Shown here: positions 40 through 53,529 of the stretch, in pieces | Position numbering within the stretch: position 1 is the first letter of the stretch | Layout of the letters: each line of letters starts with the position of its first letter | Source of the DNA: Candidatus Marinacidobacterales bacterium | GTDB lineage: Bacteria > Acidobacteriota > Vicinamibacteria > Marinacidobacterales > DATDRI01 | Reading direction: 5' to 3' | DNA length: 64,000 nt | Assembly (NCBI GenBank): GCA_965219415.1 | Contig: OZ244742.1 | Location: 1,408,001-1,472,000, forward strand | Made by a program: the position numbers and the translations under genes | The notes under the pieces: generated by a model | What the model was told of the DNA's origin: nothing | Databases searched by the model: none | The model's input: the letters and a program-made list of their open reading frames with translations, nothing else

Positions 40-600
40 TCACCTCGTTGCTCCTGGCCTAGACAGGATGCGTTCCGCACCCAATCGGACGACAGGGGGG
101 AGCTCGTTCTTGTCGACCAGTTTCGCGACCACCGACGGTGGGAGGGCCGCCAATGCTTGAAGTGCGGTGTGAACCGGCGTCCTCTTGTTTTTGATGACCG
201 CCGTCCTTACCGCCGGACGGCTCGCCCATCGCTCGGAGTCGGCCAAGACCCGCAGAATCTCCGCGGTACTCCGGGGATCTTCGGCGATCTGCAATACCTG
301 AACTTCACGCAGGCGCGGATTATTGAGCAGCGCGGCGACGACGCGCGAGTTTTTATCACCGATCAAGCCCGGGACTAGGCCGGCGGTGGCGGTACGGGCC
401 AGAGTTACTCGCTCCCCGAGCTCTAGCTCGGGGAGTCGGTCGCGCAAGTACCGCTCCGCGGCGGTCCGAACTGGCATGGGGAGGCGAAAGTTATTCGCTA
501 TCTTCAACAGCTCCTTCCAGAACAGCTGGTTTATCAACCGAAGCGCTAAAGTCTTGGGCGTCTTGGCGTGATTAACGATGGCGGACTTCCATCATGGCAT
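40..600 (-). pseudogene. Helical-repeat hypothetical protein (LRV/DUF2336-like), disrupted at its 5' end
   Basis: GGAGG RBS, then ATG CCA TGA (ATG 600-598, TGA 594-592) in frame with KSAIVNHAKTPKTLALRLINQLFWKELL...ALLNNPRL...WASRPAVRTAVIKNKRTP. Family call is from motif resemblance only. Confidence 0.55.
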
Positions 601-765
601 CACCAGACCTCCGGCGGAGCCGATTCGCTACGTCCCCCCGGCCTCCCGGGCCTCCCCGGCCTGCTCAGCCTTGGCCATCTCCTGCTCGACTACAAGCGAC
701 ATTAGCGAGAACGCTACGCGAGGGGGGGAGCTCCGTCTGGGAAGCTTCTCCGGTCACGATCGAAA

Positions 766-773
766 TACAAAAC
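766..773. repeat. Target-site duplication TACAAAAC (partner at 2158-2165)
   Basis: Identical 8-mers immediately outside both IRs. Confidence 0.95.
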
Positions 774-2157
774 GGGTTTACGCGGATTCGTGTGGGTAAG
801 TTCTGACGGAAAAACAGTGTAACTCATTGTGTGGAAAAGGTATCGAGTACTTCATCAGGTGCTGAAAAGTGGTCCATTTTTAGGATAGGCTAACCGAGTG
901 AAAAATTCCCAGTCGATCCGCTCGCTGTTTGCGCTGCCAGGTTTCGTGGTTGGTGCCGGGTTGAAGGGTCTATTCGGTGACCGATACGCCCGCGTCATCC
1001 AGCTCAAGAGGCGAAAAAAACAGCTGTGTGCTCTTACTGTGGGCAACGGTGCCGGGGGCGCTATGACAAGCAAGTGTGCCGGGTCCGCGACCTGTCGTTG
1101 GCAGGCTGGCGGATCTATCTGGAATACGAGCGTCGGCGCGTCAACTGTTCTGGGTGCGGCGGTGTGCATGTAGAACACCTAGACTGGCTGGCGAACAACT
1201 CGCGCTACACCCAGCGTTTTGCGACGCATGTGGGCAAGCTGTGCCGGGATATGCCGAACAAGGCGGTGGCCGAGATGGAACGTCTGCACCACGGTACGGT
1301 GAAGGCTCTGGATACGCTCTACATGCAAGAGCAGGTCGACCGGGCGGGGCTACCGGCGCCTCGGGCCATCGGTGTCGATGAGATCTCCATCCGCAAGGGA
1401 CATAACTATCGCGTCATTGTCAGCGACCTGGAGCGGGCGCGTCCCATCTGGGTGGGCGGTGAGGGTCGCAAAGAAACCGACATCGATTTGTTCTTCAAGG
1501 CGCTGGGCGGAAAGAAAAGCGCCCGTATCAAGCTGGCCGCCATGGATATGTGGAAGCCCTTCCGGAACTCGGTGATTCACAACGCGCCTAATGCGCGGAT
1601 CATCTTCGACAAGTTTCATATCATGCGTCATCTGTCAAAGGCCCTCGATGAGGTCCGGCGCGGTGAGTACAAACGCCTCAGCGGCAAGGACCGGTCGTAT
1701 ATCAAGGGGCAGCGTTACACTTTGCTTTCCCGGCGGGAGAACCTGAGCCTAGACGGTCGCCGCGCACTCAAAAAGTTGCTCCAGGCCAACCGGCGCCTGA
1801 ACACCGCCTATATTTTGAAGGAGGTCTTCGGGCAACTCTGGGATTACCGCACCGAACGCGGCGCTCGCGCCTTTTTCACTCGTTGGAAAGACAGCCTCAA
1901 ATGGCAACGCCTGCATCCGTACCAGAAGTTCGCCGGTATGATTGAGTCCCATTGGGATGGTATCGCCTCCTACTGTCATCCGGAGAACAAAGTCAGTCTC
2001 GGCCTAGTTGAAGGGGTCAACAACAAAATCCGTGTTCTGCAACGACGCGCCTACGGCTATCGCGACGAGGAATATCTCAAGCTGAAGATCGTGGCGGCTT
2101 TCCTTCCGCCATTACCCAGAAATGCAGTTTTCAACCCACACGAATCCGCGTAGACCC
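774..2157 (+). mobile_element. ISL3-family insertion sequence, 1384 bp, complete
   Basis: IRL GGGTTTACGCGGATTCGTGTGGGT (774-797) and IRR (2134-2157) match at 23/24. 8-bp direct repeat TACAAAAC at 766-773 and 2158-2165. Encodes an ISL3 transposase. Confidence 0.96.
898..2153 (+). CDS. ISL3 transposase (zinc finger + DDE), about 418 aa via a -1 frameshift at A7 (1014-1020)
   Basis: ORF from 898 reads ...QLKRRKK at CGA AAA AAA; the -1 frame continues TAVCSYCG...VNCSGCG, GVDE, MDMW, DKFH, EGVNNKI to the stop at 2153. Confidence 0.9.
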
Positions 2158-2165
2158 TACAAAAC

Positions 2166-2519
2166 TTATGAATGCTTTTCGTGGGTTGCGACGGCATGCG
2201 GCTCTCGGTCGTTCCTTGTCGAAGTGCCACGGTCCGTTGACCCGTCTTCGAGCGGCACCCCACCTGGAAACAACGAAGTAGAGGTCGAACTCCGCGCCTT
2301 GCGTCCGATGACTTCATTCAGCCCGATGTAGATGTTCGCGACTCCGAGACCTGAAACGGCGCCGCGGAACATGGGATTCAAGACGACGTCGCTGAGCGTC
2401 GGGTACGCTTGAAGAAAGTAATTACGCTCCCAAATCATGGACCAGGGAACGAGCAGCAAGAAAACCCCTACTTCGAGACAGATCAAGACATACAGCACGA
2501 ACCACTGGCGGTCTCCCAT
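2166..2519 (-). CDS. Small membrane hypothetical protein (2 TM)
   Basis: 117-aa ORF with hydrophobic segments LYVLICLEVGVFLLLVPW and FRGAVSGLGVANIYIG. Confidence 0.8.
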   Translation of the reverse strand: MGDRQWFVLYVLICLEVGVFLLLVPWSMIWERNYFLQAYPTLSDVVLNPMFRGAVSGLGVANIYIGLNEVIGRKARSSTSTSLFPGGVPLEDGSTDRGTSTRNDREPHAVATHEKHS

Positions 2520-2644
2520 TACGTTGCTCTAGGGGCCACCGAGTGCCGGTCTAGTACCGTCTCAGCCAACTTGTCGAAAAACCTCTTTTTCACGGAAGCT
2601 CGAAGGCGGTGAACCTGATGTCCGGTCGGATCGGCTCGGCGCAC
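2519..2644 (-). other. 41-aa sORF, possibly an internal-deletion scar
   Basis: GTG 1 nt after the TPR gene stop; MRRADPTGHQVHRLRASVKKRFFDKLAETVLDRHSVAPRAT*; its TAA overlaps the next ATG (TAATG). Confidence 0.4.
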
Positions 2645-2645
2645 G

Positions 2646-5600
2646 CTAGTTCTTGGCGGCCTGTAGGCTGCTCACGCGGTCCTTGACGTCGCGAAAACGA
2701 GCATTCACACGATAAATATCCATGAATAGCTCGAGGGCGCGATCGGGTTCACCGGCTGACTCGTATGCGATCGCCAGATCGTATCGGAGACCGTGCTGCT
2801 CTTCTTCACCCCGTCCGGGAGAGTTGAGCCCTTTCTCGAACCATTTGATGGCAATCTGGGGCATTCCCTTCTCCAGGAAGCAAAGCCCCAACATGCTGCA
2901 GCATTCGAGAAGTCTACTCTCGTCCTTGGACGCTAGCTGAAACTCTGCGATGGCCTCATCGAGAAGCCCCATCTCTTTGTAGGCAATACCGAGGTTGTAA
3001 CGGGTGTCGTAGTCTTCGGTGCCGAGCTGCTTTTCCACTCCCTTTTTGAACTCTCGGAACATTTCATCGAGATCTGGGTCGGTGACGGCATCGGTAGGAT
3101 TTCCGGTCAGCGAGGTCTCCTCCACGGCACTCTGCGTTCCGAAGACCTCATCGGAGAGCTCAGAGGCCAGGTCGACGTACTCACCCTCGATACCGGCCGG
3201 ACCGCTCAAAACCGACTCGACCTCGTCTAGCTCGGCGACTCCCTCCAACGCGGCCAGTGGGTCCTCTTCAACGTCAGGGACTTCCGTCGTGGGAAACCCG
3301 GGGACGCTTTCGGCCCGGCTAACCGGGGCCGGTTCAGCTGCCTTGTCCTCTGGCACCGAAGTACTCGCCGGAGAAACAAGTGACTCCTCGACCGGGGCAG
3401 CCGCTCCGGGAGCGGTCGCCGGGGCCTCCACTTCTTGCTGCAGTTGCTCGACCGAAAAGCCGACCTCGTCGATTTTTGCCAGAACCTGTGGGTCGTCGGG
3501 TCGCTGCTTGAGAATCTCTCGGAGCGTATCACGCGCGTCTTCGTAGAGTCCCAAGGCCATGTACTCGTCCACCTCGGCAAGGTCGTCTCGGGCCGGGGGG
3601 GCGGCCGGCACAGCTGCCGGAGGGGGCGCGACCTGCGCAGCGGGAGGTGGGCTGGCGGCCTGACCGGGCGGTACCGTTCGATCTTCTTCTTCGAAAAACG
3701 AATCCGTACCTGACGCGATGGAAGGCTCAGGCGTCTCGGGAATTTCCGCAGCCCCCTCGTCGAACTCGACCCGAACATCGTTGTCCGGCTCTTCACCCGT
3801 GAGCCCCTCTAGATCGATCTCTACATCCCCGCCGGCAGACGACGACTCGCCACCGACCGAGAATTCGTCACCGGGAATGCTCAACTCGTCCGTTACCGGC
3901 GAGGGCGGGGCGGGCAGCTCCTCCGCCAACGGCTCCTCTTCAACAATGGGGGCAGTTGGCACGGCTGGCGCAGACGTTTCCTCTACGATGGGCGCCGGCT
4001 CATCGTCCGAGCCAATCTCACCGGCGACATCGTCCATGTCGACTTCCACCGAAAACTCGTCCGGTCGATCGTCGATGACGACTTCAACGTCGTCTGCTGG
4101 AGCGGAGACGGAGGGTTGTTCCTCTTCCTCCTTTTCAACAGCGAAGGGCAATTCGTCTTCGCCCATCGAGACCGCTACGTCCGGGTCGATGGTTTCCTCT
4201 GGGGTTTGCTCCGGCGATGCGGCGACGGGCACTTCAACGTCCATCGCCAAATCGTCGTACTGTTCCGGGGCCTCTGGTGTGAGATCGATTTCGTCCTCCG
4301 GCACCAAGGATTCAGCGGGGATCTCTTCCAGGGCCGGGTTGATGCTGCGAGCCTCGATGCGAGCCTTCTCGGCGTTATCATTCTGCCCCAACCGCGTATA
4401 GATGGTGGCCAGTTGAGTCAGCTCTTCCGCCGCTTCGTTGCTCATGCCTTGATCGCGATAAATTTCGATCAACTTCTCACGGGCCGCGGTATGAAAACGG
4501 AAGCGGTCGAGAACATCCTTGAGCTGCTCGACCGCTTTGTCCACTAGCCCGTATCGAACGAAGACCTCGGCCTCCGTCATCTTCTCCTTGATATTCTCCT
4601 CGTCATCAGAGCTCAAGGATGTGACAGCGTCGATCTCCTGCTGAGTTTGCTCCGACGGAGGCTCGGCCACCGAAGGCTCCACCTCTAGGGGCCCGGAGAG
4701 CGCTTCGTCGATGTCGATGACCGGCTCCGATAATTCCGATACATCCATCGGTGCTTCCGCAACATCGGTATCCAATTCGACCACAGGCGGTAGATCCTCA
4801 TCCATAATGGCCGGGACTCTAGGCGCCTTCTGAGCGGGCGGAGCGGGGACACGAGGAGCAGGCGCGCTGGCAGCGGGAGCAGGTACGGACGGGGCAGCAG
4901 GAGCTCCCAGCTTGGATTTGAGGAAACGTACTCTATCCTTGTGTTGAGAGTTCTCGGGCTCGAGCTCGATGAGCTGCTCAGCGACTCGAACCGCTTTCTC
5001 GTAATCGCCGTGCTTCGAGTATGCCTCACAGAGCTTGTCGTAGGCGCTCGCCCTCCCAGCATCCTGTTTCAAGACCGTCTGGACTTCCACCAACTTCAAA
5101 AGGGTCTTGGTGTGGTGCGGATCGCGGTTCATAATCTTTTGGAGGTAAGCAGAGGCTTTTTCGCCTTCTTTGCCGGCAACGAGACGATCCACCGCGGGCG
5201 CCAAGAGCTCGAGCGCTTGGTCGCAGTTTCCTTGGCCGATCGCCAGATCGGCCAAGCGGCTCGTATGATCCGCGTTATCCGGCTCGAGGTCGGCGAGACG
5301 CCTGAACATGGCCTCGGCCTCGGCGGAGCGACCTGCACCCATATAGGCTTCGCCGAGGCGCGAGAGCAACTCGACATCTTGCGGGTGTTGCTCGCGCACC
5401 TCCTCAAGTAACTGAATGGCCTTGTCGTGGTGCCCTTGAAGGCTGGCCGCTTGAGCCAGCTTGGTCCTCAGCAATCGACTGGTGTTGTCGATCCGGAGGC
5501 CCTTCTCCATGATCTGGATCGCCTCCGCCACCAACCCCTTGTTGATGAACTCATCGGCGATGCCCACGTACTCGGCGACCGCCTCCTCGACCTTGCCTTC

Positions 5601-6076
5601 TCGCTCCAGAAACTCGGCAAACTTGTAGCGGACTTTCAAGTCAGAGGATCGATCTCGGCGAGCTTCTTGAAGACTTCGGTAGCCTGCCGTTTGTAGCCGG
5701 TCTTCGTGTAGAGCTCGACCAAGGCTTGATACTGCGCCTTGGCCTCCATCAACAAACCCTGAATCACCTGCAGCTCGGCTAGATTGCGCATCGCCGTTTC
5801 GTTCTGAGGATCCAGGCGCAGGATCATTTTGTGAGTGGCGATGGCGCGGACGTTGAAACCATCCTGACGGTAGTAGTCCGCGATCTGCGCGTACTTCTTT
5901 ATGGCTTCGTTGTTTCGCCCGATGCGGGCATAGAGGCCGCCGATTTGGCAAATGGTATTCCAATCCTTGGGGTTGGCGGCCACCCATTTTTCGTACTCGG
6001 CGATGGCCTTCTCGACCTTACCGGAGTGGATATACTTGTCGGCGGTCTTGAAGATCCGGTCCCGGCTCAGCGCCAT
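2646..6076 (-). pseudogene. Giant TPR protein with acidic/Pro linker and C-terminal TPR module (SgmX/FimV-like architecture), frameshifted
   Basis: ORF 5636-6076 (MALSRDRIFKTADKY...LAEIDP) joins the ORF ending at 2646 (SDLKVRYKFAEFL...DYDTRYNLGIAYKEMGLLDEAIAEFQ) if 1 base is restored near 5643-5646. The span is 3431 nt, one short of a codon multiple. Confidence 0.8.
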
Positions 6077-6193
6077 CCCTCAGTTCCTCACCGTATGGAC
6101 ATCCCGACGGGCTCAGAGGTCAAACTCATGCCCTGTTGACGTTGCCGATCTTGCCGGCCTTGTCGAGACCCGCTGTTCCGTTCGCACATGGCG

Positions 6194-6547
6194 TTAGTTG
6201 GTGAGCCCTCTCTTCTCCCGAAGGCGGGCGGCCTTACCCTTCCGACCCCGCATGTAGTAAAGCTTGGCTCGGCGCACGTGATGGGATCGAAGGACCTCGA
6301 TTTTCGCGATCGTTGGTGCGTGGATGGGGAAGATCCGCTCCACACCATGGCCGAAGGACGTCTTCCTGACCGTCATGGTGGCCCGCGGCCCACCATGCTT
6401 GAGCGCGATGATCATCCCCTCGAAAATTTGAATCCGCTCCTTGTCGCCCTCTTTGACCTTCACGTGTACCTTTACGGTATCTCCAGCCGTCAAGGCCGGA
6501 ACACCCTCCTTCAACCCTCGTGAATCTAGTTCTTCCATCACATTCAT
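6194..6547 (-). CDS. rplS: 50S ribosomal protein L19
   Basis: GDTVKVHVKVKEGDKERIQIFEG, GVERIFPIH, VRRAKLYY motifs. Confidence 0.97.
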   Translation of the reverse strand: MNVMEELDSRGLKEGVPALTAGDTVKVHVKVKEGDKERIQIFEGMIIALKHGGPRATMTVRKTSFGHGVERIFPIHAPTIAKIEVLRSHHVRRAKLYYMRGRKGKAARLREKRGLTN

Positions 6548-6623
6548 TTCTAAACCTCTCAAGTAATGCAAATCAAATTAGGACTCGTTTGAACCGGGCT
6601 ACCAGAGCCTCGGTTACACGACG

Positions 6624-7379
6624 TTAGTGCCTCGCCGAGCTCTTCACCAAACCTTCGAGCTCGTCCAGAATCTCGCGCTCCTCTGTATCCAATTCCGCAC
6701 TCGCTAGCAGCTCGGGCCGACGGGCTCGAGTTGCGTGAAGTGCTTTTTCCTTACGCCAGCGTCGGATTGCCGCATGGTTGCCGGAAAGAAGCACCTCCGG
6801 CACCTTCATCCCTCGAAACTCTTCCGGCCTCGTGTAGTGAGGACAATCCAACAGCCCGCGACTGAAAGAGTCTTCTTGGGCGGAAAGTGGATCCGAAATG
6901 GCGCCGGGAAGCAACCGTACGACCGCATCCACGACGACCATGCTGGGAAACTCCCCGCCGGACAGCACATAGTCTCCGATGGAAATCTCCTCCGCACCGG
7001 TAGCGTCCAGGAACCGTTCGTCCACGTCCTCGTAGCGACCAGAAACGAGCACCAGCTGGCTCAGCTTGGCGAGCCGCTCCACCCGGTCCTGGCGCAGGGG
7101 AGCGCCTCGCGGTGAGAGCAAGACCACCGCCCGTTCATCGTCCGGTACGCGATCATCGGTCACCGCTTCGACCGCCTCCACCAAGGGCTCGACTTTCATC
7201 ACCAGGCCCGGCCCGCCGCCGTAGGGTGAGTCGTCAGTCGTACGATGCCGGTCATGGGTCCAAGAACGAAGATCGTGAACACGAATATCCACTCGTCCCG
7301 CTTCACGGGCCTTGCCCAGGACGCCCCACTCGAGCGCCCGAAACATGTCAGGAAAGATGGTGACGACGTCAATGCGCAT
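6624..7379 (-). CDS. trmD: tRNA (guanine-37-N1)-methyltransferase
   Basis: [37 protein letters not shown] motifs; operon context. Confidence 0.97.
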
Positions 7380-7911
7380 TGAGTGCTACCAGCCCTTCCG
7401 GAACATCTACTTCCACGCGCCCTCGCTCCGTGTCAATGGACTTACAGATCGCATCACAAAGCGGAATGAGAGTCTCCCCTGCTTTCGAGTCCCTAACCAC
7501 TAACAGATCGGTGCCGCCCGTGGTTAAGACCTCCTCGACGACGCCCAGATAACCGCTTTGGCCATCCCATACGCCGCAACCACGAACACGAAACTGGTAG
7601 TGGCTGCCTTCCGGCAGCGGCTCGAGCTCCGACTCCGGGATGCGAAGCTCCCGCCCCGACAACCGTTCCGCCTCTCCAATTCCCGTGATCCCCTCGAACT
7701 TGATGATCGGCCTTCCGCCTTGCAGGCGAACCCACTCCACCGGTAATACGAAGACGCTCCCATCATCACGGTCGGTAAACACTCGCCCCAACTTCTCGAA
7801 TCGATTCGGAAAATCGGTAAGCGGGTTTACCGCGACCTCGCCCTTTCGACCTTGAGCGCGAGCCACGCGTCCGACGGCGACCAATTCTTGCCAGCTTGGT
7901 ACGACATCCAT
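7369..7911 (-). CDS. rimM: 16S rRNA processing protein
   Basis: [15 protein letters not shown]-terminus plus PRC barrel; lies between khpA and trmD. Confidence 0.93.
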
Positions 7912-7971
7912 ATTAGGCCTTCATCGTCTCGTTCACCCTATGCCTACGCCTTGTGCCCTATGACTTATGAC

Positions 7972-8202
7972 TTACTCAATAATTTCAAGATGAAACCGCT
8001 TGCGTAACTTCATCCCAGCAGCGGACAGGATCGTTCGGATCGCGCGAGCCGTACGCCCTTGCTTGCCGATGACTTTTCCCAAATCCTCCTGAGCCACCCT
8101 GAGCTCGAGAATGGTGGTTTGCTCCCCGCCCACTTCCGATACTGCAACCTCATCCGGGTTGTCGACTAGTGCTTTCGCAATGAGCTCCAATAATTCCTTC
8201 AT
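7972..8202 (-). CDS. khpA: KH-domain RNA-binding protein
   Basis: 76 aa, [18 protein letters not shown]; follows rpsP. Confidence 0.93.
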
Positions 8203-8246
8203 CTCGGTCCCTCCCGCTCGCTTCGGTTCAGTCGGTGTTGGGCTCT

Positions 8247-8483
8247 CTACGAGGGTGTACGCTTCAAGAGACTGCGGACGGTGTCTGTTGCCTGGGCTCC
8301 CTTCGAGAGCCAGTACTGGGCCCGTTCTCGATCGAAGACCGCCGCTTGGCCCTCGCGCTTGGGCTCGTAGGTTCCAAGGTTTTCCACGATGCTGCCACCG
8401 CGGCCGGTCACAGAATCTGATACGACTATCCGATAGTGCGGTCGCTTCTTGCTACCTATGCGTGCTAAACGAATCTTTAACAT
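8247..8483 (-). CDS. rpsP: 30S ribosomal protein S16
   Basis: [21 protein letters not shown]...WLSKGAQAT. Confidence 0.97.
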
Positions 8484-8529
8484 GGGTCTTAATTCTCACC
8501 TCCCCTCAGGTTCTTAGTTTTTGGTTCGC

Positions 8530-9915: not shown

Positions 9916-9969
9916 CTAGGGTGGCCTCAAACAAAAGGCGGCCCCCCCCCTTAAATGGTGCATCTATTA

Positions 9970-43297: not shown

Positions 43298-43630
43298 TCA
43301 GTCGATGAGCTCGATCGCGATGTCGACCAACTCCGATGGGTACCGGTCTTCGACGTCGTGGGCCATCGATTCGAGCATCGATTCGAGATGGCGTCGGTCC
43401 GCGCTGACCGATACCGCGGACACCATCGCCCTCTGCCATAGTTCCTGGTAGCCCGTCTCGGCGACGGCGGCGTTGAAACGTGCCCGCAGACGGTCCTTGA
43501 TCCCCTTGACCACCATACGCTTTTCCTTCAAGGAGTGAGAATGAGGAAAGTGAAGCTCAATGGTCAGGAGCCCGAGGAGGGGCTCGCCCTTTTCGATACC
43601 GCGATTCTTGCTCTTCCGGCGGCGGGACAC
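43298..43630 (-). CDS. DUF503 (YlxP) family protein
   Basis: SLKEKR..V, RFNAAVAE; lies between infB and rbfA; start uncertain. Confidence 0.88.
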   Translation of the reverse strand: MSRRRKSKNRGIEKGEPLLGLLTIELHFPHSHSLKEKRMVVKGIKDRLRARFNAAVAETGYQELWQRAMVSAVSVSADRRHLESMLESMAHDVEDRYPSELVDIAIELID

Positions 43631-43637
43631 CGGTCTA

Positions 43638-46409
43638 CTAGACCGAAGCGGCCGGGACCTGCTCGACCGCGTAGATCTCGATCACGTCACCAATCTTAAC
43701 GTCGTTGTAACCCGCGATTCCGATACCACACTCGAAGCCTTGCTTGACCTCTGCTGCGTCATCCTTGAAGCGCTTCAAGCTCTCGACCTTGCCCTCGTAG
43801 ATGATGACGTTGTCTCTAAGTAGGCGAGCACCTCCAGAGCGGGTCACTTTGCCGTCGGTAACGTAGCAGCCTGCTATGGTGCCAACCTTAGGAACCTTGA
43901 AGGTGTTGCGAATTTCCGCGCGTCCCACGGTGGTTTCCTTGAAGGTGGGCTCGAGAAGTCCCGTCAAAGCCTTCTTGATCTCATCGGTGACGTTGTAAAT
44001 CACGGTATGGAGGCGGACGTCGATACTCTCTTTCTCCGCCAACTCTTCCGCAGTCCTCTCTGGTCTTGCATTGAAGCCGACGATGATCGCGTTCGAGACC
44101 GAGGCCAAGTGTACGTCGGCCTCGGTAATGGCGCCGGCTCCGGCACGAATGATCTTCACCTTCACTTTTTCCCCGGAAAGCTTGGTCAGGGTGTCGGACA
44201 AAACTTCCACCGAGCCCTGCACGTCGGCCTTCAGCACGATCGGCAGTTCCTTGACGGTGCCCTCTTCCACCTGTTGGTGGAGCTGATCCAACGTCAATCG
44301 GGAGCTTTGAGCCTGCAGGCGCTCTTTCAGTTTCTGCTGCCGGAACTCGCCGATCTGCCTAGCCTTGGTGCTCTCGAGTACCTGGAACTGGTCCCCGGCC
44401 TGGGGCAACGACGCGAGTCCCAAGATCTCGATTGGCGTCGCGGGATCGACTCTCTTCACTTTGTGTCCCCGATCATCGATCATGGCGCGGATCTTCCCAT
44501 GCACCGCTCCGGCGATAAACGAATCGCCGATCCGAGCGGTCCCATTCTGAATGAGTACGTGTGCGACAGGGCCTTTGCCTTTGTCAATTTTGGCTTCCAA
44601 CACCGTACCCATCGCCGCCCGCTTTGGATTTGCCTTGAGCTCCTGAATGTCCGCGACCAGCAGAACCATCTCCAACAATAGGTCCAAGCCTTGTTGTTGT
44701 TTCGCCGATACTTCGACGAAGACCGAGCTGCCCCCCCAATCTTCGGGCAGGAGACCGAGATCTGCTAATTGTTTCTTGACGCGCTCGGCATTGGCCTCCG
44801 GCTTGTCGATCTTGTTGATCGCCACCATCAGCGGAACCCCCGCCGCCTTGGCGTGGTCGATGGCCTCCACGGTTTGAGGCATGACGCCGTCGTCGGCCGC
44901 GACCACCAGGACCACCAAGTCGGTCACCCGAGCACCGCGGGCACGCATCATCGTGAAAGCCTCGTGGCCGGGGGTGTCCAAGAAGACGATGCTACGCCCA
45001 TTCACGGCAACCTTATAGGCGCCTATGTGTTGGGTAATGCCCCCCGCCTCTTTCTCCACGACCTTGGTCTGCCGAATGGCGTCGAGAAGACTCGTCTTTC
45101 CGTGGTCGACGTGACCCATAACCGTGACCACCGGCGCGCGCGCAGCGAGATCCTCCGGTTTTTCCTCGACCGTCTCCTCTCGGAAAACATCTTCCTCGAA
45201 AGACAGTATTTCGGCTTCCGCCCCAAATTCGCGCGCCACCTCGACCGCGAGCTCGGTCTCTAAGGTTTGGTTGATAGTAGCGAGGAGTCCGCGGTTCATC
45301 AAAGACTTGATGAGGTCCTTGTGCTTGACCTCCATCTTCTCCGCAAGCTCTTTCACGGTGACACCTTCGGTCAAGGTGATTTTGCGAAAGACTTGGGGAG
45401 CAGCTGGCTTGGCGGTTTCTTTCGGTTCCGGGATCGCCTGTTCTTCGACCTCTGCCGCGGTAGCGCGCGCCCTTCGGTGAGATTCCTTGGTCCGCGGTTT
45501 GGCATCCGGGCGCCGCCGATGAACGGTCTTGATCGGTGCCGCCGGTCGCGGCGGGGGAGGTATCGGCTTCATCGCGCCGCCCCGTGTCTGGGCTGGCTGC
45601 CGCGGCCGAATCACCGTCGACGTCGGACCGGGAACGAACGCTGATGCTCTTGTCGCACCGGCCCCCTGCCCGCGCGCCATCGATGGCGCACCCGCCATGG
45701 CGCCGCCAGTCGGGGAAGAGGGTGCCACCGGTGGCAGTGGAGGCGTCCTGGTGGCGTGCGGAGCCGGTGAAGGCGCTGGTTTCTCCGCACGCTGGGCTCC
45801 GAGCTCGGCGGACAACGCTTCGGTCCCTTCGGCCCTTTCGGGCAGGCGCCTACCTGCTGCGTCGACTTCGGCGACTTCAGCGACATTAGCACCTGGCGCC
45901 GCCTCCGCATCTTCCACCAACCCTGAATCGACTCGGGCACGCTCATCCACTTCTACCTGAAGAGCCTCCTGCTCCTCGAGTAGCGCGGCCAGTCTGGCTG
46001 CTTCTTCTCGCGCAGCTTGTTCGGCGGCTACTCTCTCAGCCTCTTCACGCTCTTGGGCCGCTCGTTCCTCGGCCAGCTTTCGTCTCTCCTCCGCGCGCTC
46101 CTCTTCTTCGAATTCGGCGAGAAGCGCCTTGCGAGCGCGTGCGGCGCGTTCCTTGCTCGAGCTCCGCGCTCGATCTTCCTTGGATTGAGCAGGATCGGTA
46201 ACGCTCGCCCTAGCCTTCGCCTTGGCAGAACCAATGGCACCGGCCCCTTCGAGGCGAATGAGCCTTTTCAGCTTGATCGCAACGTCTTCTTCGATGGTAC
46301 TGGAGGCAGACTTGACCCTGATCTGGAGTTTGTCCTTGAGAAGTTGGATGGTCCGAGGGCTAGTGATACCGATATCGCGAGCCAGCTCGTAAACCCTGAC
46401 CTTGTCCAT
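43638..46409 (-). CDS. infB: Translation initiation factor IF-2
   Basis: [33 protein letters not shown]. Confidence 0.98.
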
Positions 46410-47842
46410 CAGTGCTCACCTCCCGAACCTTCCGATTCTGGCTCGCCGACGCTCGATTGTAGATCGTGCGCGATCTCGCCAACCGGAAGTGGTTCTTCGG
46501 TGGCCTCCAGCAAAGCCGGCTCTTCGACCGGCGCCACATCCTCCGTTGTTTCGCTTCCCGTGGGCCCTTCGGCGAGCGGCGGCACACTGGCTAAGTGATC
46601 CCTAGCAGCAGCGACGATTTTCTCCGCGGTTTTTGCTCCAATGCCTGGAATCTCGGTCAAGGAATCGGGTTCGAGCGATGCCACCTCCTCCACCGTGGTG
46701 AAACCCTGCTCCGCCAGCCTCTCTAACGTTTTCTCGCCGAGTCCTTTCACGGTGCTGAGCGGCGTCTGCGTGGTTGCCATGGCGTCCATCTGGCTTTGCA
46801 CTTCCAATTTCTTTTCTTCCTCACTCCTGATGTCGATTCGCCAACCGATGAGCCTGGCCGCCAAGCGGACGTTCTGCCCCTTTTTTCCGATCGCCAACGA
46901 GAGCTGCTTGTCCTCGACGATGACCTCCATGACCTTCTCTCTTTCGTCGACAATGGACACGCGGCTCACCTTGGCAGGGTTGAGCGCGTTGATCGCGAAC
47001 GTGCGAGGATCGTCGTCCCACTCTACGATATCGATTTTCTCTCCTCGCAGCTCGCGGATAATGTTCTGAACCCGCGACCCCTTGATACCGACGCAGGCTC
47101 CCACGGGATCCACGTCTTTGTCTTTCGAAAAAACCGCGACCTTGGCACGATCTCCAGGCTCCCGCACCGCATTTTTTACCACCACCGTGCCTTCATAGAT
47201 CTCGGGAACCTCCATTTCGAACAACCTGGCCAACAGCGCGGGGTCGGTTCGAGACACGACGACCTGCGGCCCACGCGAGGTACGCAACACCCGGACGATG
47301 GCCACTCGAATACGCTCTCCGGCGTTGAACACCTCGGCTCGCGACTGCTCCCTTCGAGGCAAAACGGCCTCGGTACGTCCGAGGTCCACCACCAGGTCGC
47401 CGTTTTCTGCCCGCTTGACAATTCCCGTCAGAAGTTGCGCGATACGATCGCCAAACTCGCTGAAAATGTTGTCCCGCTCCGCCTCCCTTACCTTCTGGAA
47501 GATCACCTGCTTTGCGGTCTGGGCTGCGATGCGACCGAGGGCGGCGGTGGGCTTGTGTACTTCCATTTCCTCGCCAAGTTTCGCGCTGGATTGGGCGTGC
47601 TTTGCTTCCCTCAAGGAGATCTCGATATCGGGTGTGATCACCGAATCCACGACGGTCTTGAGGGTGAAGACCTCGATGTTCCCAGTTTCTCGATTCAGCC
47701 GAGCGCGGAGATCCTCTTCAGTCCGGTAGTACTTCTTGGTAGCGGTAACGATCGCGTCCTCAACGGCACCGATGATCACGTCCGGATCGATGCCCTTCTC
47801 TCGACTGATCTGTTCGATCGTTTGATATAGAAGGCTACTCAT
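46409..47842 (-). CDS. nusA: Transcription factor NusA
   Basis: GRIAAQTAKQ, S1 and KH domains (DPVGACVG, AIGKKGQNVRLA), C-terminal HhH. Confidence 0.97.
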   Translation of the reverse strand: MSSLLYQTIEQISREKGIDPDVIIGAVEDAIVTATKKYYRTEEDLRARLNRETGNIEVFTLKTVVDSVITPDIEISLREAKHAQSSAKLGEEMEVHKPTAALGRIAAQTAKQVIFQKVREAERDNIFSEFGDRIAQLLTGIVKRAENGDLVVDLGRTEAVLPRREQSRAEVFNAGERIRVAIVRVLRTSRGPQVVVSRTDPALLARLFEMEVPEIYEGTVVVKNAVREPGDRAKVAVFSKDKDVDPVGACVGIKGSRVQNIIRELRGEKIDIVEWDDDPRTFAINALNPAKVSRVSIVDEREKVMEVIVEDKQLSLAIGKKGQNVRLAARLIGWRIDIRSEEEKKLEVQSQMDAMATTQTPLSTVKGLGEKTLERLAEQGFTTVEEVASLEPDSLTEIPGIGAKTAEKIVAAARDHLASVPPLAEGPTGSETTEDVAPVEEPALLEATEEPLPVGEIAHDLQSSVGEPESEGSGGEH

Positions 47843-48336
47843 TACCTTTTTCCTGTCAGCCGACGCTGCTCCGGCGAGAACTCTACCTCCAACCGGGCAC
47901 TCTCGATGATCGGGAACCGAATACTAGTCCGCTCACCGCTTTCCTCCAAAAACACTGACTCTCCCTCGACTCCCGCGAGTCTTCCCCGGAACTGATTTTT
48001 CCCATCAAGCTGCTCCCGGGTCTTAATCTTCGCCAGCCTTCCAGTGAAGCGCTCGTAGTCCTTCATGCTCCAGAGCGGTCGATCCAATCCTGGCGTACTG
48101 ACCTCGAGTGTGTAGCTCGCCTCAATGGGATCTTCCACGTCCAGCAGCACACTCAGACGTTCGTTGACTCGCTCGCACTCTTCGAGTCCGACACCTTCCT
48201 CGCGGTCGATAAACACTCTAAAGACCCCGGAACCACCGGCTTGCTTGAGCTCGACCCAAGCGATCTCGATACCCAGCGGCTTGGCGGCCCGATCGGCCAG
48301 CTCCTTTAGTCTGGGGAGCAGGCTTTCGTCTTGCAT
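47842..48336 (-). CDS. rimP: Ribosome maturation factor
   Basis: YTLEVSTPGLDRPL. Confidence 0.95.
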   Translation of the reverse strand: MQDESLLPRLKELADRAAKPLGIEIAWVELKQAGGSGVFRVFIDREEGVGLEECERVNERLSVLLDVEDPIEASYTLEVSTPGLDRPLWSMKDYERFTGRLAKIKTREQLDGKNQFRGRLAGVEGESVFLEESGERTSIRFPIIESARLEVEFSPEQRRLTGKR

Positions 48337-48436
48337 GACGGTGCTGGGCGCAGTACAAGTGCTGATTTCGCCCTCCTAATCCCTCTGGCTGTCCCATCGG
48401 GAGCCGCCCGAAAGGCATTTCGGGCGGTCAACCAAT

Positions 48437-48462
48437 AAAAAAAGTGGGCAAATGCCCACTCT
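48437..48462 (-). terminator. Intrinsic terminator/attenuator in the rimP-nusA leader
   Basis: AGUGGGC-AUUU-GCCCACU followed by a U tract, between the promoter and rimP. Confidence 0.85.
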
Positions 48463-48483
48463 GTGGACTCTCGACTGCGTACA

Positions 48484-48513
48484 ACTATAGTCTAACCGGC
48501 TAGCTCAGATCAA
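48484..48513 (-). promoter_or_regulatory. Sigma70-type promoter of rimP-nusA-infB
   Basis: TTGATC-N18-TATAGT. Confidence 0.6.
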
Positions 48514-48576
48514 GCATCAGATGAACGACTTGAGCCAAATGAAGCACTTACCGGGAATCGCCTTCCGTCGTCCCCA

Positions 48577-49908
48577 TCAGCCAACGATCCGACCCACCAA
48601 ATCATAAGGATGGGCCTCCGTTACCTCCACGGTTACAAAGTCGCCAAGTTTCGCGGCGCCCTCATTGATTAATACCCCACCGTCTATCTCCGGCGCCTGA
48701 CCTTCCGTCCTTCCCCGAAGGAGCAGACCCGTCTCCCCCGACGGGCCCTCCACCAACACCCTTTGACGGCTCCCCACGAGCTTTTGATTCTTGCGCAGGG
48801 AGATGGTGCCCTGCTGTTCCATCAGCAGGTGTCTTCGTTCCTCTTTCTCCGCCGAGGACACGGTCTCAATCTGCACGAAGGCTTCGGTATCCTCCTCGTT
48901 CGAATAGGTGAAGACCCCCACATTGTCGAGCTCCACGTCGCGGCAAAACTGCAAGAGGTCGTCGAAGTCGACTCTCGCTTCGCCCGGGAAGCCGACGATG
49001 AAGGAGCTGCGCAACGATACCCGTGGTACGGCACGACGGATGCGTTCGAGCAGCTTTTCATTGCTCGCTCTCGTTCCTGGGCGTTTCATTGCCTTGAGAA
49101 TGCGGTCGCTCGCGTGTTGCAGTGGTATATCGAGGTAGAGGCAGACGCGAGGCTCGGTTGCCATGACCTCGAGCACTTCGTCAGTGACCGTGGTCGGGTA
49201 GGCGTATAGCACGCGCACCCATTCGAGTCCGTCCACTGCCGCGAGCCCTTGGAGCAAGTCGGCAAGGCTGGCGTTCTGGTCGAGCTCCGCACCGTAGCGG
49301 GTCGTGTCCTGTGCAATGAGGACCAGTTCTCTGATCCCTTGCTTCACGAGGGACTCTGCCTCAGAGAGAATGGACTCCGGCGTCCGGCTTCGATAGTGCC
49401 CCCGTATCTTTGGAATGATGCAGAAGGTGCAGGGGTAGTCGCAACCTTCCGAGATCTTCACATAGGCGTAGGGGCGCGGCGTGGTGAGCACGCGGGGGGC
49501 GAGGTGATCGTAAAGATAGACGACCGAACCGTCGGCCCGGAGATTCGGAACCTGCCGGTCTTGGCCCTCCGACGCGGACACAATCGAGTCCAGTTGGTCC
49601 AGTCCAATCACCGCATCCACCTCAGGAATCTCCCGGGCGATCTCGTCGGCGTAGCGTTGCGCCAAACATCCCGAGACGATGAGACGTCGGCAACGTCCTT
49701 CCTGCTTGTGCCGCGCCATCTCGAGGATCGTATCGATGCTCTCCTGCTTCGCTCGGTCGATGAATCCGCAGGTGTTGACGACCAATACCTCTGCCTCCGA
49801 CGGATCTGAGGTGGGCTGGTACCCCGCCTTGGTTAGATGCCCCAACATCACCTCCGTGTCCACGAGGTTCTTGGGGCAGCCTAGGCTTACGAATCCAATT
49901 TTCTTCAT
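48577..49908 (-). CDS. rimO: Ribosomal protein S12 methylthiotransferase
   Basis: LGCPKNLVD, NTCGFI, CDYPCTFC radical-SAM motif, TRAM domain APEIDG. Confidence 0.96.
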   Translation of the reverse strand: MKKIGFVSLGCPKNLVDTEVMLGHLTKAGYQPTSDPSEAEVLVVNTCGFIDRAKQESIDTILEMARHKQEGRCRRLIVSGCLAQRYADEIAREIPEVDAVIGLDQLDSIVSASEGQDRQVPNLRADGSVVYLYDHLAPRVLTTPRPYAYVKISEGCDYPCTFCIIPKIRGHYRSRTPESILSEAESLVKQGIRELVLIAQDTTRYGAELDQNASLADLLQGLAAVDGLEWVRVLYAYPTTVTDEVLEVMATEPRVCLYLDIPLQHASDRILKAMKRPGTRASNEKLLERIRRAVPRVSLRSSFIVGFPGEARVDFDDLLQFCRDVELDNVGVFTYSNEEDTEAFVQIETVSSAEKEERRHLLMEQQGTISLRKNQKLVGSRQRVLVEGPSGETGLLLRGRTEGQAPEIDGGVLINEGAAKLGDFVTVEVTEAHPYDLVGRIVG

Positions 49909-49969
49909 GGGCAGGCGTTCAGCGTAGCGAAAAACCGATCGGCTCGCAAATCCCCTGCAAATTTTGACG

Positions 49970-51268
49970 CTAGGGGGAGAGTCGGTAGAGCATACGTGGA
50001 AAGGGAATCGATTCTCGAAGATGCTCCAGCTTGCAGATCCAGGCTACCACTCGCTCGATACCCATACCGAAGCCGGAATGCGGAACGCTTCCATAACGGC
50101 GCAGATCGAGGTACCAAGAAAAGGCCTCTTCCGGCAACTTGTGGTCCCGGATCCGTTTCCGGAGGAGCTCTAGATCATGTATGCGCTGACTCCCACCTAT
50201 GATCTCGCCGTAGCCCTCCGGCGCGAGAACATCGACGCACAGTGCAGTCTCCGGCCGATCGGGATCGGGCTCCATGTAGAAAGCCTTGACCGCGCTCGGA
50301 TAACAGGTGATCGCGACCGGCCGTTGGTGAGCCCGCGACAGCATCTCCTCATCTTGCGCACCGAAGTCGGAACCCCATTCGAAAGCGTTGCCCTCCCTTT
50401 TTAGCGACTCGACCGCCTGGTCATAGGTGATTCGAGGAAACGGTTTTTTCACTTCCTCGAGGGGCGCGAGGTCCCTTTCTAAAACCTTCAGCTCTTCGCG
50501 TCTCTTCTCCAATACGGATTCGACGACGAAGCAAACGAAATCTTCGGCGAGCTCGATGATGTCATCCAAAAGGGCATAGGCGACCTCGGGCTCGATCATC
50601 CAGAACTCGATGAGATGGCGCCGTGTCTTGGACTTTTCGGCCCTGAAAGTTGGGCCGAAACAGTAGGTCTTACCCACCGACATCGCGACCGCCTCGTTGT
50701 ATAGCTGGCCGCTCTGGGTGAGGTACGCCCTCTCCCCGAAGTAGTCGGTCTCGAAGAGAGTGGTCGTCCCTTCGCTCGCGTTGGGAGTGAAGATCGGAGT
50801 GTCAGCCAGTATGAAGCCCCGGTCGTCGAAAAAATTACGGCAGGCGGAAATAATCTCGTGTCGAATCCTCAGGATGGCGTGTTGACGGCGGGAACGAAGC
50901 CACAGATGTCGGTTGTCGAGCAAGAAGGCGACGCCGTGCTCCTTGGGGCCTATCGGATACTCTTCCGCGATCTGCACAGGTTCTAGGTCGCAAAGCTCCA
51001 GCTCATAGCCGCCCGGAGCTCGGTCGTCCTTACGTACTTTTCCCCGAACGACGAGGGAGCTTTCCGTGGTGAGCCCCTTGGCGCGCTCCCAAACCTCTTG
51101 GGGCACTTCCGCCTTGGAGATAACACCCTGGATGAAGCCGGAGCCGTCTCGCAGGATCAAGAATTGGATCTTCCCGCTAGAACGACGGTTCACGAGCCAG
51201 CCCTTGAGCGTGACCTCCTTTCCGCCGTGGCTAGAAATGTCTCCGATATATACCTGGGTCGAGCTCAT
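49970..51268 (-). CDS. asnS: Asparaginyl-tRNA synthetase
   Basis: OB fold, [43 protein letters not shown]. Confidence 0.93.
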
Positions 51269-51281
51269 CGAATCAGCTCCT

Positions 51282-52316
51282 TCATGTCATTTCCGGGAGG
51301 TGGGCAGCGAGCACCCGTCTCAAACCATCCCACGCCGTCCGCTCAGAATGCCGTGCCAGATTGGACCTCACCATCTCGAGCGTATAAGGAACGTAGCGCT
51401 CATAGAACGACTTGCCCCTGACCGCAATCTGATTGCCGAACGTGCCAAGCGCTTTCAAATTTCGTTGCAATGCCGTCAAATCGAATTCTTCCTCGAGGCT
51501 CCTGCGATCGGTCGACGTGGCTAGAAGGAACTGTTCTTTGAACTCCTCGACAAACTCCGCTTCCAGTTCCACGTACGAATCCCGCAGCAGCGAGACCAAA
51601 TCATAACTTACCGGGCCCATACGCGCGTCCTGAAAATCGATCACCACCAGGTCGCTCCCCACGAGAAGGAGGTTCCGAGAATGATAATCACGGTGACAAA
51701 GAACACGCGGGCGAGCGGCAAGCTCGGTGGCGATGTTCCGGAAAGCGCTGTCCAGCGCCTCCAGCTCGGGGGCGCCGAGCAAGACCTTGCGGAACCCCTC
51801 GAGAAAATGCTTCCTAAAGAAAGATAGCTCCCAATGGAGCTTGTTTTGGTCGAAAGCCAATCCGTAGGGGAGATACTTGGTGCTTTCTAAAGCCACCCCG
51901 CGCTCTTGAACACGCGCCAGAATGCCGATCGACTGCCGATAGAGACTCTTCTTCGTCTTGGTGTCGGCATTTTCCACCACCGTCTGGAGGAGCTCGTCGC
52001 CACAATCCTCCAACAGCAAAATGCCTTCCGGGCCAGAGACATCATGTATCTTTGGAACGCGCACCGGCATCTCTTGGAAGAGCCGAGCCACGTTCAAGAA
52101 AGGCTCGCGCTCCGGGTCGAAGGGCTCTGGCAGCAGCGCGAGCACCATGGTCTGCAGCCCCGAACCACCGGATAGGTCCACTCGGTAGTAACTGCGTGTC
52201 GAGGCATCCCCGGCAAGAGCCGTTACCGAACCCACCGGAAGACCTTCTTTATTTCGACGACCCAGGTAGCGAACGATCCTGGGATCGATGGATTGGTCTG
52301 CGGGGTCTATCGACAT
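51282..52316 (-). CDS. amgK: AmgK-like anomeric sugar kinase (APH family)
   Basis: [34 protein letters not shown]; paired with a nucleotidyltransferase. Confidence 0.8.
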
Positions 52317-53404
52317 CAAACCTTGATTTCCGCCACCACGCAGTCTCCAACGACTTCCCGGGCTCGGATCGCGGCCCGTTCCGACTGGAGGCGCACCATA
52401 ACCTTCCCGACGGTACTCGTGGAGGCGGCCAAAGATACGTCACTCGCTATTACGCATTTGCGAACCAGTGCGTCTTCGGAAACCGTGACCCGGTCCCAGA
52501 GCACCGCGCTTTGTATCCTTGCGCCGCGCTCCACGACGCAGTCCGCACCGAGAATCGTTGTGCCGGAGAAATGGGCCCCCGGATCGACCCGAGTGCCAGG
52601 ACCGACTAGTACGGTGGTCCCCGGAGGCGAGCCGGCGGGCGGCTCGATGGATTGACTCTTGAACAAACCCTTCTCCACTAACTGCTCGCAGGCATTCAGG
52701 TACCGTTCTGGCGTCCCGATATCGAACCAAGTCGTATCGGCAACGTAACCAAAGACCGAGCCTTCGGCGATGAGCGTCGGGAGTAGGTCCACCTCGAGCC
52801 GGGCGAAGCGGCCTCGGTGCAGATGCTCGAAAACGGAGGGCTCTAGCACCCAAACCCCGGCGAACATGAGAGGCGAGGCAGAAGGGTCCGTTTTGTGACT
52901 CCTTTGGCCGATCGAAATAACGCGGCCGTCCTCTGCGATGCCCAACTCCGTGTAATCGCTACGTGAAGGCTTGGGACGCAAGAGCAAAGTAGCCGTCGCA
53001 TTCTTGCCACGATGCCAATCGATCAGTCCACCTAAGTCGACGTCGACGATCGTGTCTCCGTTGAGGACCACGAAGCTCCCTCCCGCGAGAAGCTCCTCGG
53101 CCTGCTTGAGTCCCCCCGCTGTGCCGAGAAGCTCCGCCTCTCGAGAATAATGGAGGGAGAAATCCTGGCGCTCGTCCATAGCCTCCAGCACTTCGACGAT
53201 GCTCTCGGGGTGGTGGTGGAGGTTGACGATCACTTCGCGAATGCCCGCCTCGCGAAGTAGCTCCATCGCAAACTCAATCGGGGTGGCTCCCAGGAGAGGG
53301 ATCGCCGGTTTCGCCCAATAAACGGTCAGCGGCCTCAAACGCCGCCCCTCCCCTGCCGCGAGCACCATGGCCATGGCCTTCACCGCTCTCGTCGGCGGCG
53401 TCAT
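52316..53404 (-). CDS. NDP-sugar pyrophosphorylase (MurU/GMPP-like) with C-terminal hexapeptide repeats
   Basis: LAAGEGRRLRPLT..KP, LGTAGG, NGD, WFDIGTP. Confidence 0.88.
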   Translation of the reverse strand: MTPPTRAVKAMAMVLAAGEGRRLRPLTVYWAKPAIPLLGATPIEFAMELLREAGIREVIVNLHHHPESIVEVLEAMDERQDFSLHYSREAELLGTAGGLKQAEELLAGGSFVVLNGDTIVDVDLGGLIDWHRGKNATATLLLRPKPSRSDYTELGIAEDGRVISIGQRSHKTDPSASPLMFAGVWVLEPSVFEHLHRGRFARLEVDLLPTLIAEGSVFGYVADTTWFDIGTPERYLNACEQLVEKGLFKSQSIEPPAGSPPGTTVLVGPGTRVDPGAHFSGTTILGADCVVERGARIQSAVLWDRVTVSEDALVRKCVIASDVSLAASTSTVGKVMVRLQSERAAIRAREVVGDCVVAEIKV

Positions 53405-53529
53405 CGAGGTTGGCGGTCTTCCGGATACCGCGGCTCGAGCGCCTCACCCCGGGCGTTTATCAACATCGCCTCACCTTGCTGCCACGACGACATTGGGAAT
53501 TTGACTTCGCGCTCGACCTTAATACCCAA
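53401..53529 (-). pseudogene. 42-aa remnant of a CYTH (class IV adenylate cyclase-like) gene
   Basis: GGAGAG RBS, TTG start, MGIKVEREVKFP (ExExK motif); its TGA overlaps the next ATG (ATGA). Not in the ORF track because it is under 60 aa. Confidence 0.7.

Follow-up and report, generated by a model that had tools for sequence, protein, structure and literature searches.

Broken signalling genes in a 64-kb window of an uncultured acidobacterium as a probable sample of genome-wide pseudogene formation

The DNA analyzed here, a 64-kb stretch from the genome of an uncultured acidobacterium of marine type (hereafter the window; G000:C1:1408001-1472000, where G000 denotes the genome under study), carries about 56 features, mostly core genes on the minus strand. 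About 48 of its genes are intact, infB, pnp, and smc among them, and seven are broken; an insertion sequence (IS) of the ISL3 family lies close to the first of these. A reading of the window made from its letters alone (the sequence-only reading) had listed lesions in cyclase, phosphodiesterase, and cyclic-nucleotide-binding genes and in two supposed motility-type genes, and had interpreted them as the selective loss of cyclic AMP (cAMP)- and cyclic di-GMP (c-di-GMP)-controlled, probably type IV pilus-related, behavior. We followed up these lesions in related genomes, in contigs of public sequencing runs, and in the rest of G000, an assembly of 8,046,490 bases in 3 contigs (G+C 0.59, completeness 96.3, contamination 8.45).

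The closest genome, G001, belongs to the same genus and consists of one 6.34-Mb contig. It is collinear with G000 over the whole window at ~80-89% nucleotide identity, and the second congener, G002, is likewise collinear. Lesions were sought by comparing 81 selected open reading frames (ORFs) from the syntenic 80 kb of G001 with the window, followed by alignment of each suspect site. This syntenic alignment, a check that the sequence-only reading had itself proposed, was run against both congeners and confirmed the lesions; decay of the CYTH-family gene turned out to have begun already within the genus, as both congeners have degraded copies. All the lesions that the reading lists exist, but some descriptions had to be amended (plsY, for example, carries one 1-bp deletion in the window, not several). 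Tallies of relatives include an unpublished genome, G007, on which no claim rests alone.

Table 1. Broken genes, insertion sequence, and intact core block of the window (positions count from the first letter of the window)
Feature	Positions	Strand	Description
Gene of unknown function, remnant	40-595	-	~244 aa in G001; no Pfam family
ISL3-family insertion sequence	774-2157 (766-2165 with duplications)	+	1384 bp; transposase ORF 1026-2153
TPR-repeat gene	2646-6076	-	1171 codons stop-to-stop in G001
cNMP-binding gene, remnant	10037-10243	-	155 codons in the intact ortholog
Cache-HAMP-HD-GYP phosphodiesterase gene	15069-16998	-	two 1-bp deletions, at 15806 and 15144
FHA-GAF-class III cyclase gene	17015-18639	-	58-bp deletion at 17902
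plsY, single copy	18551-19252	-	1-bp deletion at 18796, near the C terminus
CYTH-family gene, remnant	53419-53538	-	~first 40 codons
Intact core block (contrast to the lesions)	39036-57268	-	pnp, rpsO, truB, rbfA, infB, nusA, rimP, MiaB-like enzyme, class II tRNA synthetase, smc

In the gene at 40-595, 182 bp are deleted at 584/585, so that the reading frame changes behind codon 5 and a stop follows after 7 codons. The TPR-repeat gene is split in two by the loss of one C at 5645/5646 (codon 145), outside a homopolymer; this C is present in both G001 and G002. From the cNMP-binding gene, 335 bp are gone at ~10037, including most of the binding domain (residues 32-117 in the G001 ortholog). Codons 2-57 of 155 are left (10064-10234), and the cNMP_binding profile gives no match at this site in G000.

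The deletion at 15806 divides the phosphodiesterase gene into a sensor ORF (15802-16998) and an HD-GYP ORF (15086-15805) with an ATGA overlap; the second deletion alters the tail of the frame. The overlapping stop and start codons (15802-15805) fall on a natural internal Met codon. The HD_5 match covers 4-169 of the 170 profile positions but is no longer joined to the Cache-HAMP sensor, and, judging from the arrangement of the frames, the complete HD-GYP domain may be translated as a stand-alone protein. In the cyclase gene the deletion falls in the GAF region, where it corresponds to G001 residues ~257-272; the catalytic domain is complete (8-176 of 183 positions), but the deletion breaks the frame. 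As multidomain class III cyclases and HD-GYP phosphodiesterases go, the two genes have the domain orders of their G001 orthologs, in which both FHA-GAF-cyclase and Cache-HAMP-HD-GYP are complete, whereas in the window the frames are interrupted and the catalytic domains survive as separate ORFs without sensors. Orthologs of the cyclase were found in 14 further contigs of metagenome-assembled genomes (MAGs), at 63-89% identity. Both genes are intact in G001 and both are absent in G002, which has ~260 bp in place of window 14934-18366; hence the pair is dispensable within the genus.

The plsY deletion adjoins a run of C. The profile match stops at 137 of 164 positions, and the tail is out of frame. 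G001 plsY (L010:6820-7570) carries a 1-bp insertion of its own and a split profile match (2-103 and 100-164). The gene is thus broken at different places in G000 and G001, both of which are long contiguous assemblies, and is intact in G002 and G003.

The CYTH remnant can be aligned with the N-terminal 28-41 residues of CYTH proteins that are intact in relatives. The match to the G006 ortholog (tblastn E = 3.8e-7 over 28 residues, in a tiny search space) is followed by six weaker ones. For the 57-aa frame around the remnant (53401-53574) Pfam gives no hit at E up to 0.01, nor does a search of G000 with the CYTH profile return a match here. Relatives at the family and order level have the gene intact at the syntenic site; in six (G004, G005, G012, G014, G018, and G020) it shares a contig with pnp at a distance of ~13-15 kb, an arrangement also seen for the remnant. 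G001 keeps residues ~1-49 and 154-187 and G002 keeps ~105-190, so that the deletions differ, and the CYTH profile finds no match in G001 or G002. We conclude that this gene was already decaying within the genus. A second CYTH gene, apparently intact (227-aa frame), is present at G000:C3:4715857-4716282 (L104).

Several further candidates were rejected. A raw scan for 1-bp indels against G001 had suggested lesions at rpsP and the KH-domain gene (8238) and at rpsO (41427-41512); translation showed that these indels are intergenic and that the three genes are intact. The same scan gave three plsY indels, at 18672, 18796, and ~18905, of which that at 18796 is assigned to the window and that at ~18905 is the insertion of G001. 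An apparent purC frameshift came from a spurious overlapping G001 ORF, and purC is intact by Pfam. A formiminotransferase gene (313 aa) that is present in G001 and missing at window 25636-26069 is also missing in G002 and was not counted as a lesion; in G001 this gene (FTCD_N and FTCD domains) lies at L010:14533-15471, between the orthologs that flank window 25636 and 26069.

To what extent these lesions recur outside the assembly can be seen from public sequencing runs. Parts of window 9900-19300 are carried by 16 listed runs from 8 studies, 7 of which hold at least half of the sampled words. Contigs of four runs were aligned to window 1-20000, two of them, X11 and X12, representing two studies. 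X12 contigs agree with the window over 1-798, 2130-11200, and 14999-20000, where they show neither a difference nor a gap; the X11 pieces, at 2205-6425, 6397-9980, 10064-11359, 11368-14967, 15005-17786, 17757-18358, and 18329-20000, show 0-1 differences apiece. All lesions in 1-20000 recur in one or other of the two runs, and most of them, including those of the HD-GYP gene and plsY, recur in both. The junction of the 182-bp deletion is crossed by an X12 contig (1-798), and that of the cNMP-binding gene is also bridged in X12, while no listed X11 piece spans 9981-10063. We conclude that the seven lesions are genuine inactivating mutations and true alleles. The sequence-only reading was therefore right that the lesions exist, that large deletions (58, 182, and 335 bp) are among them, and that random sequencing error does not account for them.

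The same contigs reveal differences between strains. In X11, 21 letters that match the undeleted G001 gene follow position 588, after which the contig (window 559-2205) jumps to 2205 and contains no IS. This allele shows that X11 is not the same clone as the window, and it points to two near-identical strains with independent deletions in the gene at 40-595 that differ by one IS insertion. Two runs from related strains, X1 and X2, carry an extra C behind 5645 that X11 and X12 lack, which makes the TPR frameshift a recent, strain-level change.

The insertion sequence lies ~170 bp upstream of the start codon of the gene at 40-595. It has the features of an ISL3 member: a transposase matching DDE_Tnp_ISL3 (E = 1.3e-68) with helix-turn-helix and zinc-ribbon domains, terminal inverted repeats of ~24 bp, and an 8-bp target duplication, TACAAAAC, at 766-773 and 2158-2165. 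A duplication of 8 bp is typical of ISL3, and no unusual feature was seen in the element. The site is empty in G001 and G002. In G000 the element has 46 long copies with a median identity of 99.4%. Summed contig depth over the IS (window 668-2668) is ~20-1300 times that of the flanks in all four runs (X11: ~1200-2700 vs ~13). The 46 long genomic copies would not account for such an excess, and further copies may reside in replicons or organisms that are more abundant in the samples.

This element is one of many. Comparison of G000 with itself gave 510 segments that are 800 bp or longer and have a minimum of 5 other copies with an identity of 95% or above; these IS-size repeats total 740 kb, or 9% of the DNA, and 16% of the genome is repeated at least once. 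At least three IS families of 1.38-1.46 kb are present in 26-46 long copies each, ~99.4-99.8% identical. In equal 1.2-Mb samples, repeated DNA amounts to 129.8 kb in G000 vs 3.9 kb (0.3%) in G001, a difference of ~30-fold.

Genome-wide loss of genes was estimated from 60 evenly spaced 20-kb pieces of G001. Of 943 stop-to-stop ORFs of at least 100 aa in these pieces, 710 had a codon score of at least 0.08 and were searched against G000. Under looser rules 141 of 566 orthologs were broken in G000; under strict rules, which called for 40 aa or more of matching sequence at 75% identity or higher on either flank, 75 of 541 were, with 66 ambiguous orthologs excluded from both the broken and the intact set. 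In the mirrored control G001 appeared "broken" in 269 of 779 and then in 74 of 740 cases. Because out-of-frame ORF tails of G000 itself confound this control, a codon-score polarity check was added, which 96% of true-frame windows and 0% of shifted windows pass. With this check, 80 events (64 frameshifts and 16 stops) remained in 63 of the 541 G000 genes, and 15 genes had at least two. Both congeners carry many broken genes, and G000 carries more.

The nature of these events was also examined. Single-base changes from the G001 codon (e.g., CAG to TAG or TGG to TGA) explain 22 of 26 stops examined, a set in which a few stops lie in possible upstream regions and one gene is counted at two duplicated loci. 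One-base indels make up 48 of 72 strict frameshifts (30 insertions, 18 deletions), and 32 of the 48 are in runs of two bases or fewer, so that the indel pattern does not look like homopolymer error. An insertion of IS size was found in 5 sampled orthologs. Core genes are largely spared: infB, pnp, and smc in the window each match G001 in a single frame, as the sequence-only reading had noted, with plsY as the one core exception, and the ribosomal, translation, signal recognition particle, riboflavin, and smc genes of the window are intact. Exceptions are plsY and, in the ortholog sample, pdxJ.

The 75 strictly broken orthologs, as annotated with Pfam, belong to many classes. Regulators and sensors comprise 5 Ser/Thr kinases, 6 two-component proteins (including a PilS-like kinase and its sigma-54 partner), an FHA-GAF sigma-54 activator, an ECF sigma factor, and one Cache-HAMP-GGDEF protein. 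A pilin-like protein and a bactofilin are also broken, as are transport proteins (AcrB, HlyD, 3 ABC components, a CLC channel, a xanthine permease, and a solute-binding protein) and enzymes (2 sulfatases, 4 peptidases, 2 amidohydrolases, PrpD, PdxJ, a nucleoside hydrolase, an RnfD-like protein, and MauG). The remainder includes a TamB-Omp85 giant, a LolA-like protein, TonB, SbcC, several TPR proteins, and 19 proteins without a family. Signaling genes account for 14 of the 75 broken orthologs vs 3 of 100 random intact ones (p = 0.0006; the intact set includes a few genes broken near the N terminus, such as the TPR gene of the window). For cyclic-nucleotide and pilus genes together the figures are 4 of 75, namely one GGDEF protein and three pilus-related proteins (pilin-like, PilS, and PilR), vs 2 of 100 (p = 0.40). 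In this sample, a functional scan of the kind that the sequence-only reading had called for reveals a bias toward signaling, but no enrichment specific to cyclic nucleotides or pili.

Domain families were also counted across the whole genomes, a match being scored as affected if truncated, split, or interrupted by a stop. Pkinase matches are affected most, in 24 of 58 cases in G000 vs 5 of 92 in G001 among the matches listed (p = 8.6e-8); matches to this family number 83 in G000 and 96 in G001 in total. The Pkinase share in G000 also exceeds that of ABC_tran (p = 4.5e-6). Sigma54_activat is hit in 6 of 19 cases in G000 (0-1 of 21 in G001), and GGDEF, counting lesions inside the domain, in 6 of 13 (3 of 15). 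HD_5 is hit within the domain in 2 of 6 cases (0 of 7) and, by open-frame length, a measure tabulated for G000, in 4 of 6. The corresponding numbers are 1 of 5 (0 of 3) for Guanylate_cyc, 1 of 10 (0 of 14) for cNMP_binding, 3 of 11 (1 of 12) for T2SSE, and 3 of 57 (0 of 54) for ABC_tran. Two further cyclases of G000 are broken or shortened outside the domain. A 633-aa frame at G000:C3:147045-148658 has a partial Pkinase match (1-153) and a Guanylate_cyc match (7-176), and may be a kinase-cyclase fusion or a rearranged gene.

Pooled, the cyclic-nucleotide families are hit far more often than ABC ATPases (10 of 34 vs 3 of 57, p = 0.0035), in agreement with the sequence-only reading. Other signaling families, however, are hit as well (30 of 77; p = 4.5e-6 against ABC ATPases), and the two groups do not differ (p = 0.39). 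Genes for sensing and regulation, i.e., Ser/Thr kinases, sigma-54 activators, and two-component, GGDEF, HD-GYP, cyclase, and cNMP-binding proteins, are thus broken several times more often than ABC transporter ATPases, and cyclic-nucleotide genes are one subset of them.

Taken together, these data lead us to conclude, with a probability of roughly 75%, that the lesions of the window are a local sample of genome-wide pseudogene formation. G000 has undergone a recent IS bloom; frameshifts, nonsense mutations, and deletions of tens to hundreds of base pairs are present in a large share of its genes, and essential information-processing genes are intact. The clustering of lesions in one functional class, as first proposed, holds within the window and dissolves genome-wide, where many classes are broken. 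The window looks selective because its dispensable signaling genes, except the NtrY/NtrX-like and ECF sigma/anti-sigma pairs, happen to be cyclic-nucleotide genes.

We propose that purifying selection on environment-sensing and accessory functions was relaxed and selection became less efficient, possibly through a more constant or confined way of life or a small population; IS elements would then have proliferated and disabling mutations have gone to fixation. Part of the function may survive some of the lesions, as in the separate HD-GYP ORF with its ATGA coupling or the TPR gene in two parts. The driver of the decay, host restriction or otherwise, we only infer; a shift to host-associated or sessile life, as first suggested, is compatible with the IS bloom.

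Several observations weigh against this reading or limit the numbers behind it. After the polarity check G001 itself has 56 events in 55 of 740 ORF queries (25 frameshifts and 31 stops), and with its own plsY frameshift this means that the pattern may in part be a trait of the genus or of the assembly type rather than a recent event. The G+C content is 0.5919 in G000 vs 0.5918 in the G001 sample, i.e., there is no AT drift, and a crude ORF-based estimate shows only a moderate drop in coding density (0.669 vs 0.759 in G001). Unchanged G+C, a moderate drop in ORF density, and lesions in the sister genome count against the picture of a late or simple symbiont. In the ortholog comparison the Pfam cut was 1e-5 for the broken set vs 1e-12 for the intact set, and annotation covered 100 of the 425 intact orthologs. 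In the census, 29 kinase matches fall outside the listed set and two halves of one gene count twice; a truncated match is a proxy, and some may be natural variants, such as three kinase matches covering 1-212, of a kind that G001 has once. The p values overstate significance, as paralogs and kin are not independent. The public runs were viewed as Logan contigs, not raw reads, with depths of ~8-18 and library type unrecorded, and one run may be the source of the assembly.

A more far-reaching version of the explanation is possible, although we hold it tentatively and would sooner doubt it. G000 would be the first acidobacterium seen at the onset of reductive evolution, an 8-Mb genome of free-living type just entering a confined or host-bound life, with its sensory-regulatory network collapsing before metabolism, genome size, and base composition change. 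The network losses would amount to ~40% of ~80 Ser/Thr kinase domains, a third of the sigma-54 activators, and half of the c-di-GMP enzymes. If so, the differing deletions and IS insertions of near-identical strains mean that the process is still running and could be traced between samples.

Among the other explanations, the one that survives best, though it is improbable, is the original proposal that a cAMP/c-di-GMP signaling and type IV pilus network is being dismantled as a unit by specific or relaxed selection. All four cyclic-nucleotide genes of the window are indeed broken next to intact NtrY/NtrX-like and ECF sigma/anti-sigma pairs, HD-GYP genes are broken at the whole-gene level in 4 of 6 cases in G000 vs 0 of 7 in G001, GGDEF loci are often hit inside the domain, PilS and PilR are broken, and one T2SSE/secretin cluster of G001 is degraded or missing in G000. 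A unit loss does not agree, however, with the equal damage to other signaling families, with the lack of enrichment of cyclic-nucleotide and pilus genes among broken orthologs, most of which belong to other classes, or with a CYTH gene already degraded in both congeners. The pilus core (PilB, PilT, PilC, PilQ, and PilM) has open frames equal to those of G001, which speaks against the suggested loss of pilus behavior. Full domains in long open frames are likewise present in one or two class III cyclases, in one CYTH gene, and in several genes of the cNMP-binding and GGDEF families. For the TPR gene and its neighbor at 40-595 no tie to pili was found: Pfam gives TPR families only for the one and no family for the other. 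What stands of the proposal is a lineage that is losing genes while its core is kept. The broken PilS-like kinase (frameshift) and sigma-54 response regulator (CGA to TGA) lie together at G000:C1:1266322-1268900, adjacent to intact PilB, PilT, and PilC.

Slightly less probable still is that accessory genes are turning over in the ordinary way, as they would in any large genome of an acidobacterium, with paralogs of expanded families decaying and the way of life unchanged. Dozens of lesions in G001, a CYTH gene degraded in all three congeners, outright loss of the HD-GYP and cyclase genes from G002, unchanged G+C, and the huge expansion of Pkinase, the hardest-hit family, in both genomes would all agree with it. 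Against it stand the ~30-fold IS load relative to the congener, the far higher share of truncated or stopped kinase matches in G000 than in G001, and hits in the single-copy genes pdxJ, plsY, and sbcC.

Least probable is that the lesions are artefacts of long-read assembly or of a mixed-strain consensus and that the genes of the organism are intact: a MAG-like assembly of 3 contigs with 8.45% marker contamination, the low run depth, and a frameshifted plsY, normally essential and single-copy, in both long assemblies (beside a C run in G000; intact in G002 and G003) would fit such errors, but contigs of two studies repeat every covered lesion with 0-1 differences over ~18 kb, the kinds of lesion (long deletions, an IS with target duplication, single-base nonsense changes, and one-base indels mostly outside homopolymers) are unlike read errors, and at the TPR site the strains of X1 and X2 depart from the window exactly as G001 and G002 do.

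Genome-wide pseudogene formation with an IS bloom, the explanation we favor, is a decay process of a known kind in an unusual phylum. Most work on genome decay after a change of lifestyle concerns Proteobacteria and a small number of further groups, usually long after its onset. Early-stage reductive evolution with IS proliferation is described for recently host-restricted bacteria, namely Sodalis glossinidius, Serratia symbiotica, luminous symbionts of anglerfish, and the Azolla cyanobiont (PMC7067036, PMC3056288, PMC6020299, PMC4369082). G000 resembles these systems in its many near-identical IS copies, in many genes broken by one or two recent lesions, in the sparing of core information-processing genes, and in the preferential loss of regulators and sensors. 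Unlike them, it belongs to Acidobacteriota, is still 8 Mb in size and larger than its congener, and has no AT shift; its congener, which lacks an IS bloom, also has many lesions, and the host restriction of those systems is for G000 only a possibility. Partial counts put the share of broken orthologs in G000 at 12-25%, less than the ~50% given for Sodalis (PMC7067036). Of the hallmarks of reductive evolution, IS proliferation, a raised fraction of broken genes (compared with 55 of 740 in G001 by the mirrored test), and a spared core are found in G000, and a lower G+C is not. In the open-access and bioRxiv literature that our searches covered, we found no paper on "Marinacidobacterales" and no relevant case of an acidobacterial IS bloom or of acidobacterial pseudogenes.

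An acidobacterial genome of such great size, with its IS bloom still fresh, could reveal the functions that are lost earliest, here apparently sensing and regulation. Mostly single lesions per broken gene, a much cleaner sister species, and strains that still differ at individual lesions make G000 useful in this respect. In practical terms, many genes will be split when long-read MAGs of this kind are annotated, "contamination" estimated from markers may come out too high, and a functional cluster of lesions in one 64-kb window needs to be judged against the genome-wide lesion rate.

The remaining genes of the window include the core genes rplS, trmD, rimM, a KH-domain gene, rpsP, ffh, ribBA, ribE, ribD, and ftsY; in addition to plsY there are ligT, cinA, and pgpA, the NtrY/NtrX-like pair, nrdR, the ECF sigma/anti-sigma pair, purC, and groES, and, beside smc, metK and a fused lptF/G. 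Duplications of at least 5 kb are few in G000 (8 hits, mostly at contig ends). A repeat of ~11 kb (99.8-99.95% identity) is common to the C3 end, the C2 end, and an internal C3 site (C3:5681915-5693529, C3:2937410-2953345, and C2:273651-284250), and is probably the reason why the assembly stops there. LptF and LptG form one fused frame of 810 aa at window 57472-59904; the G001 equivalent has 783 aa.

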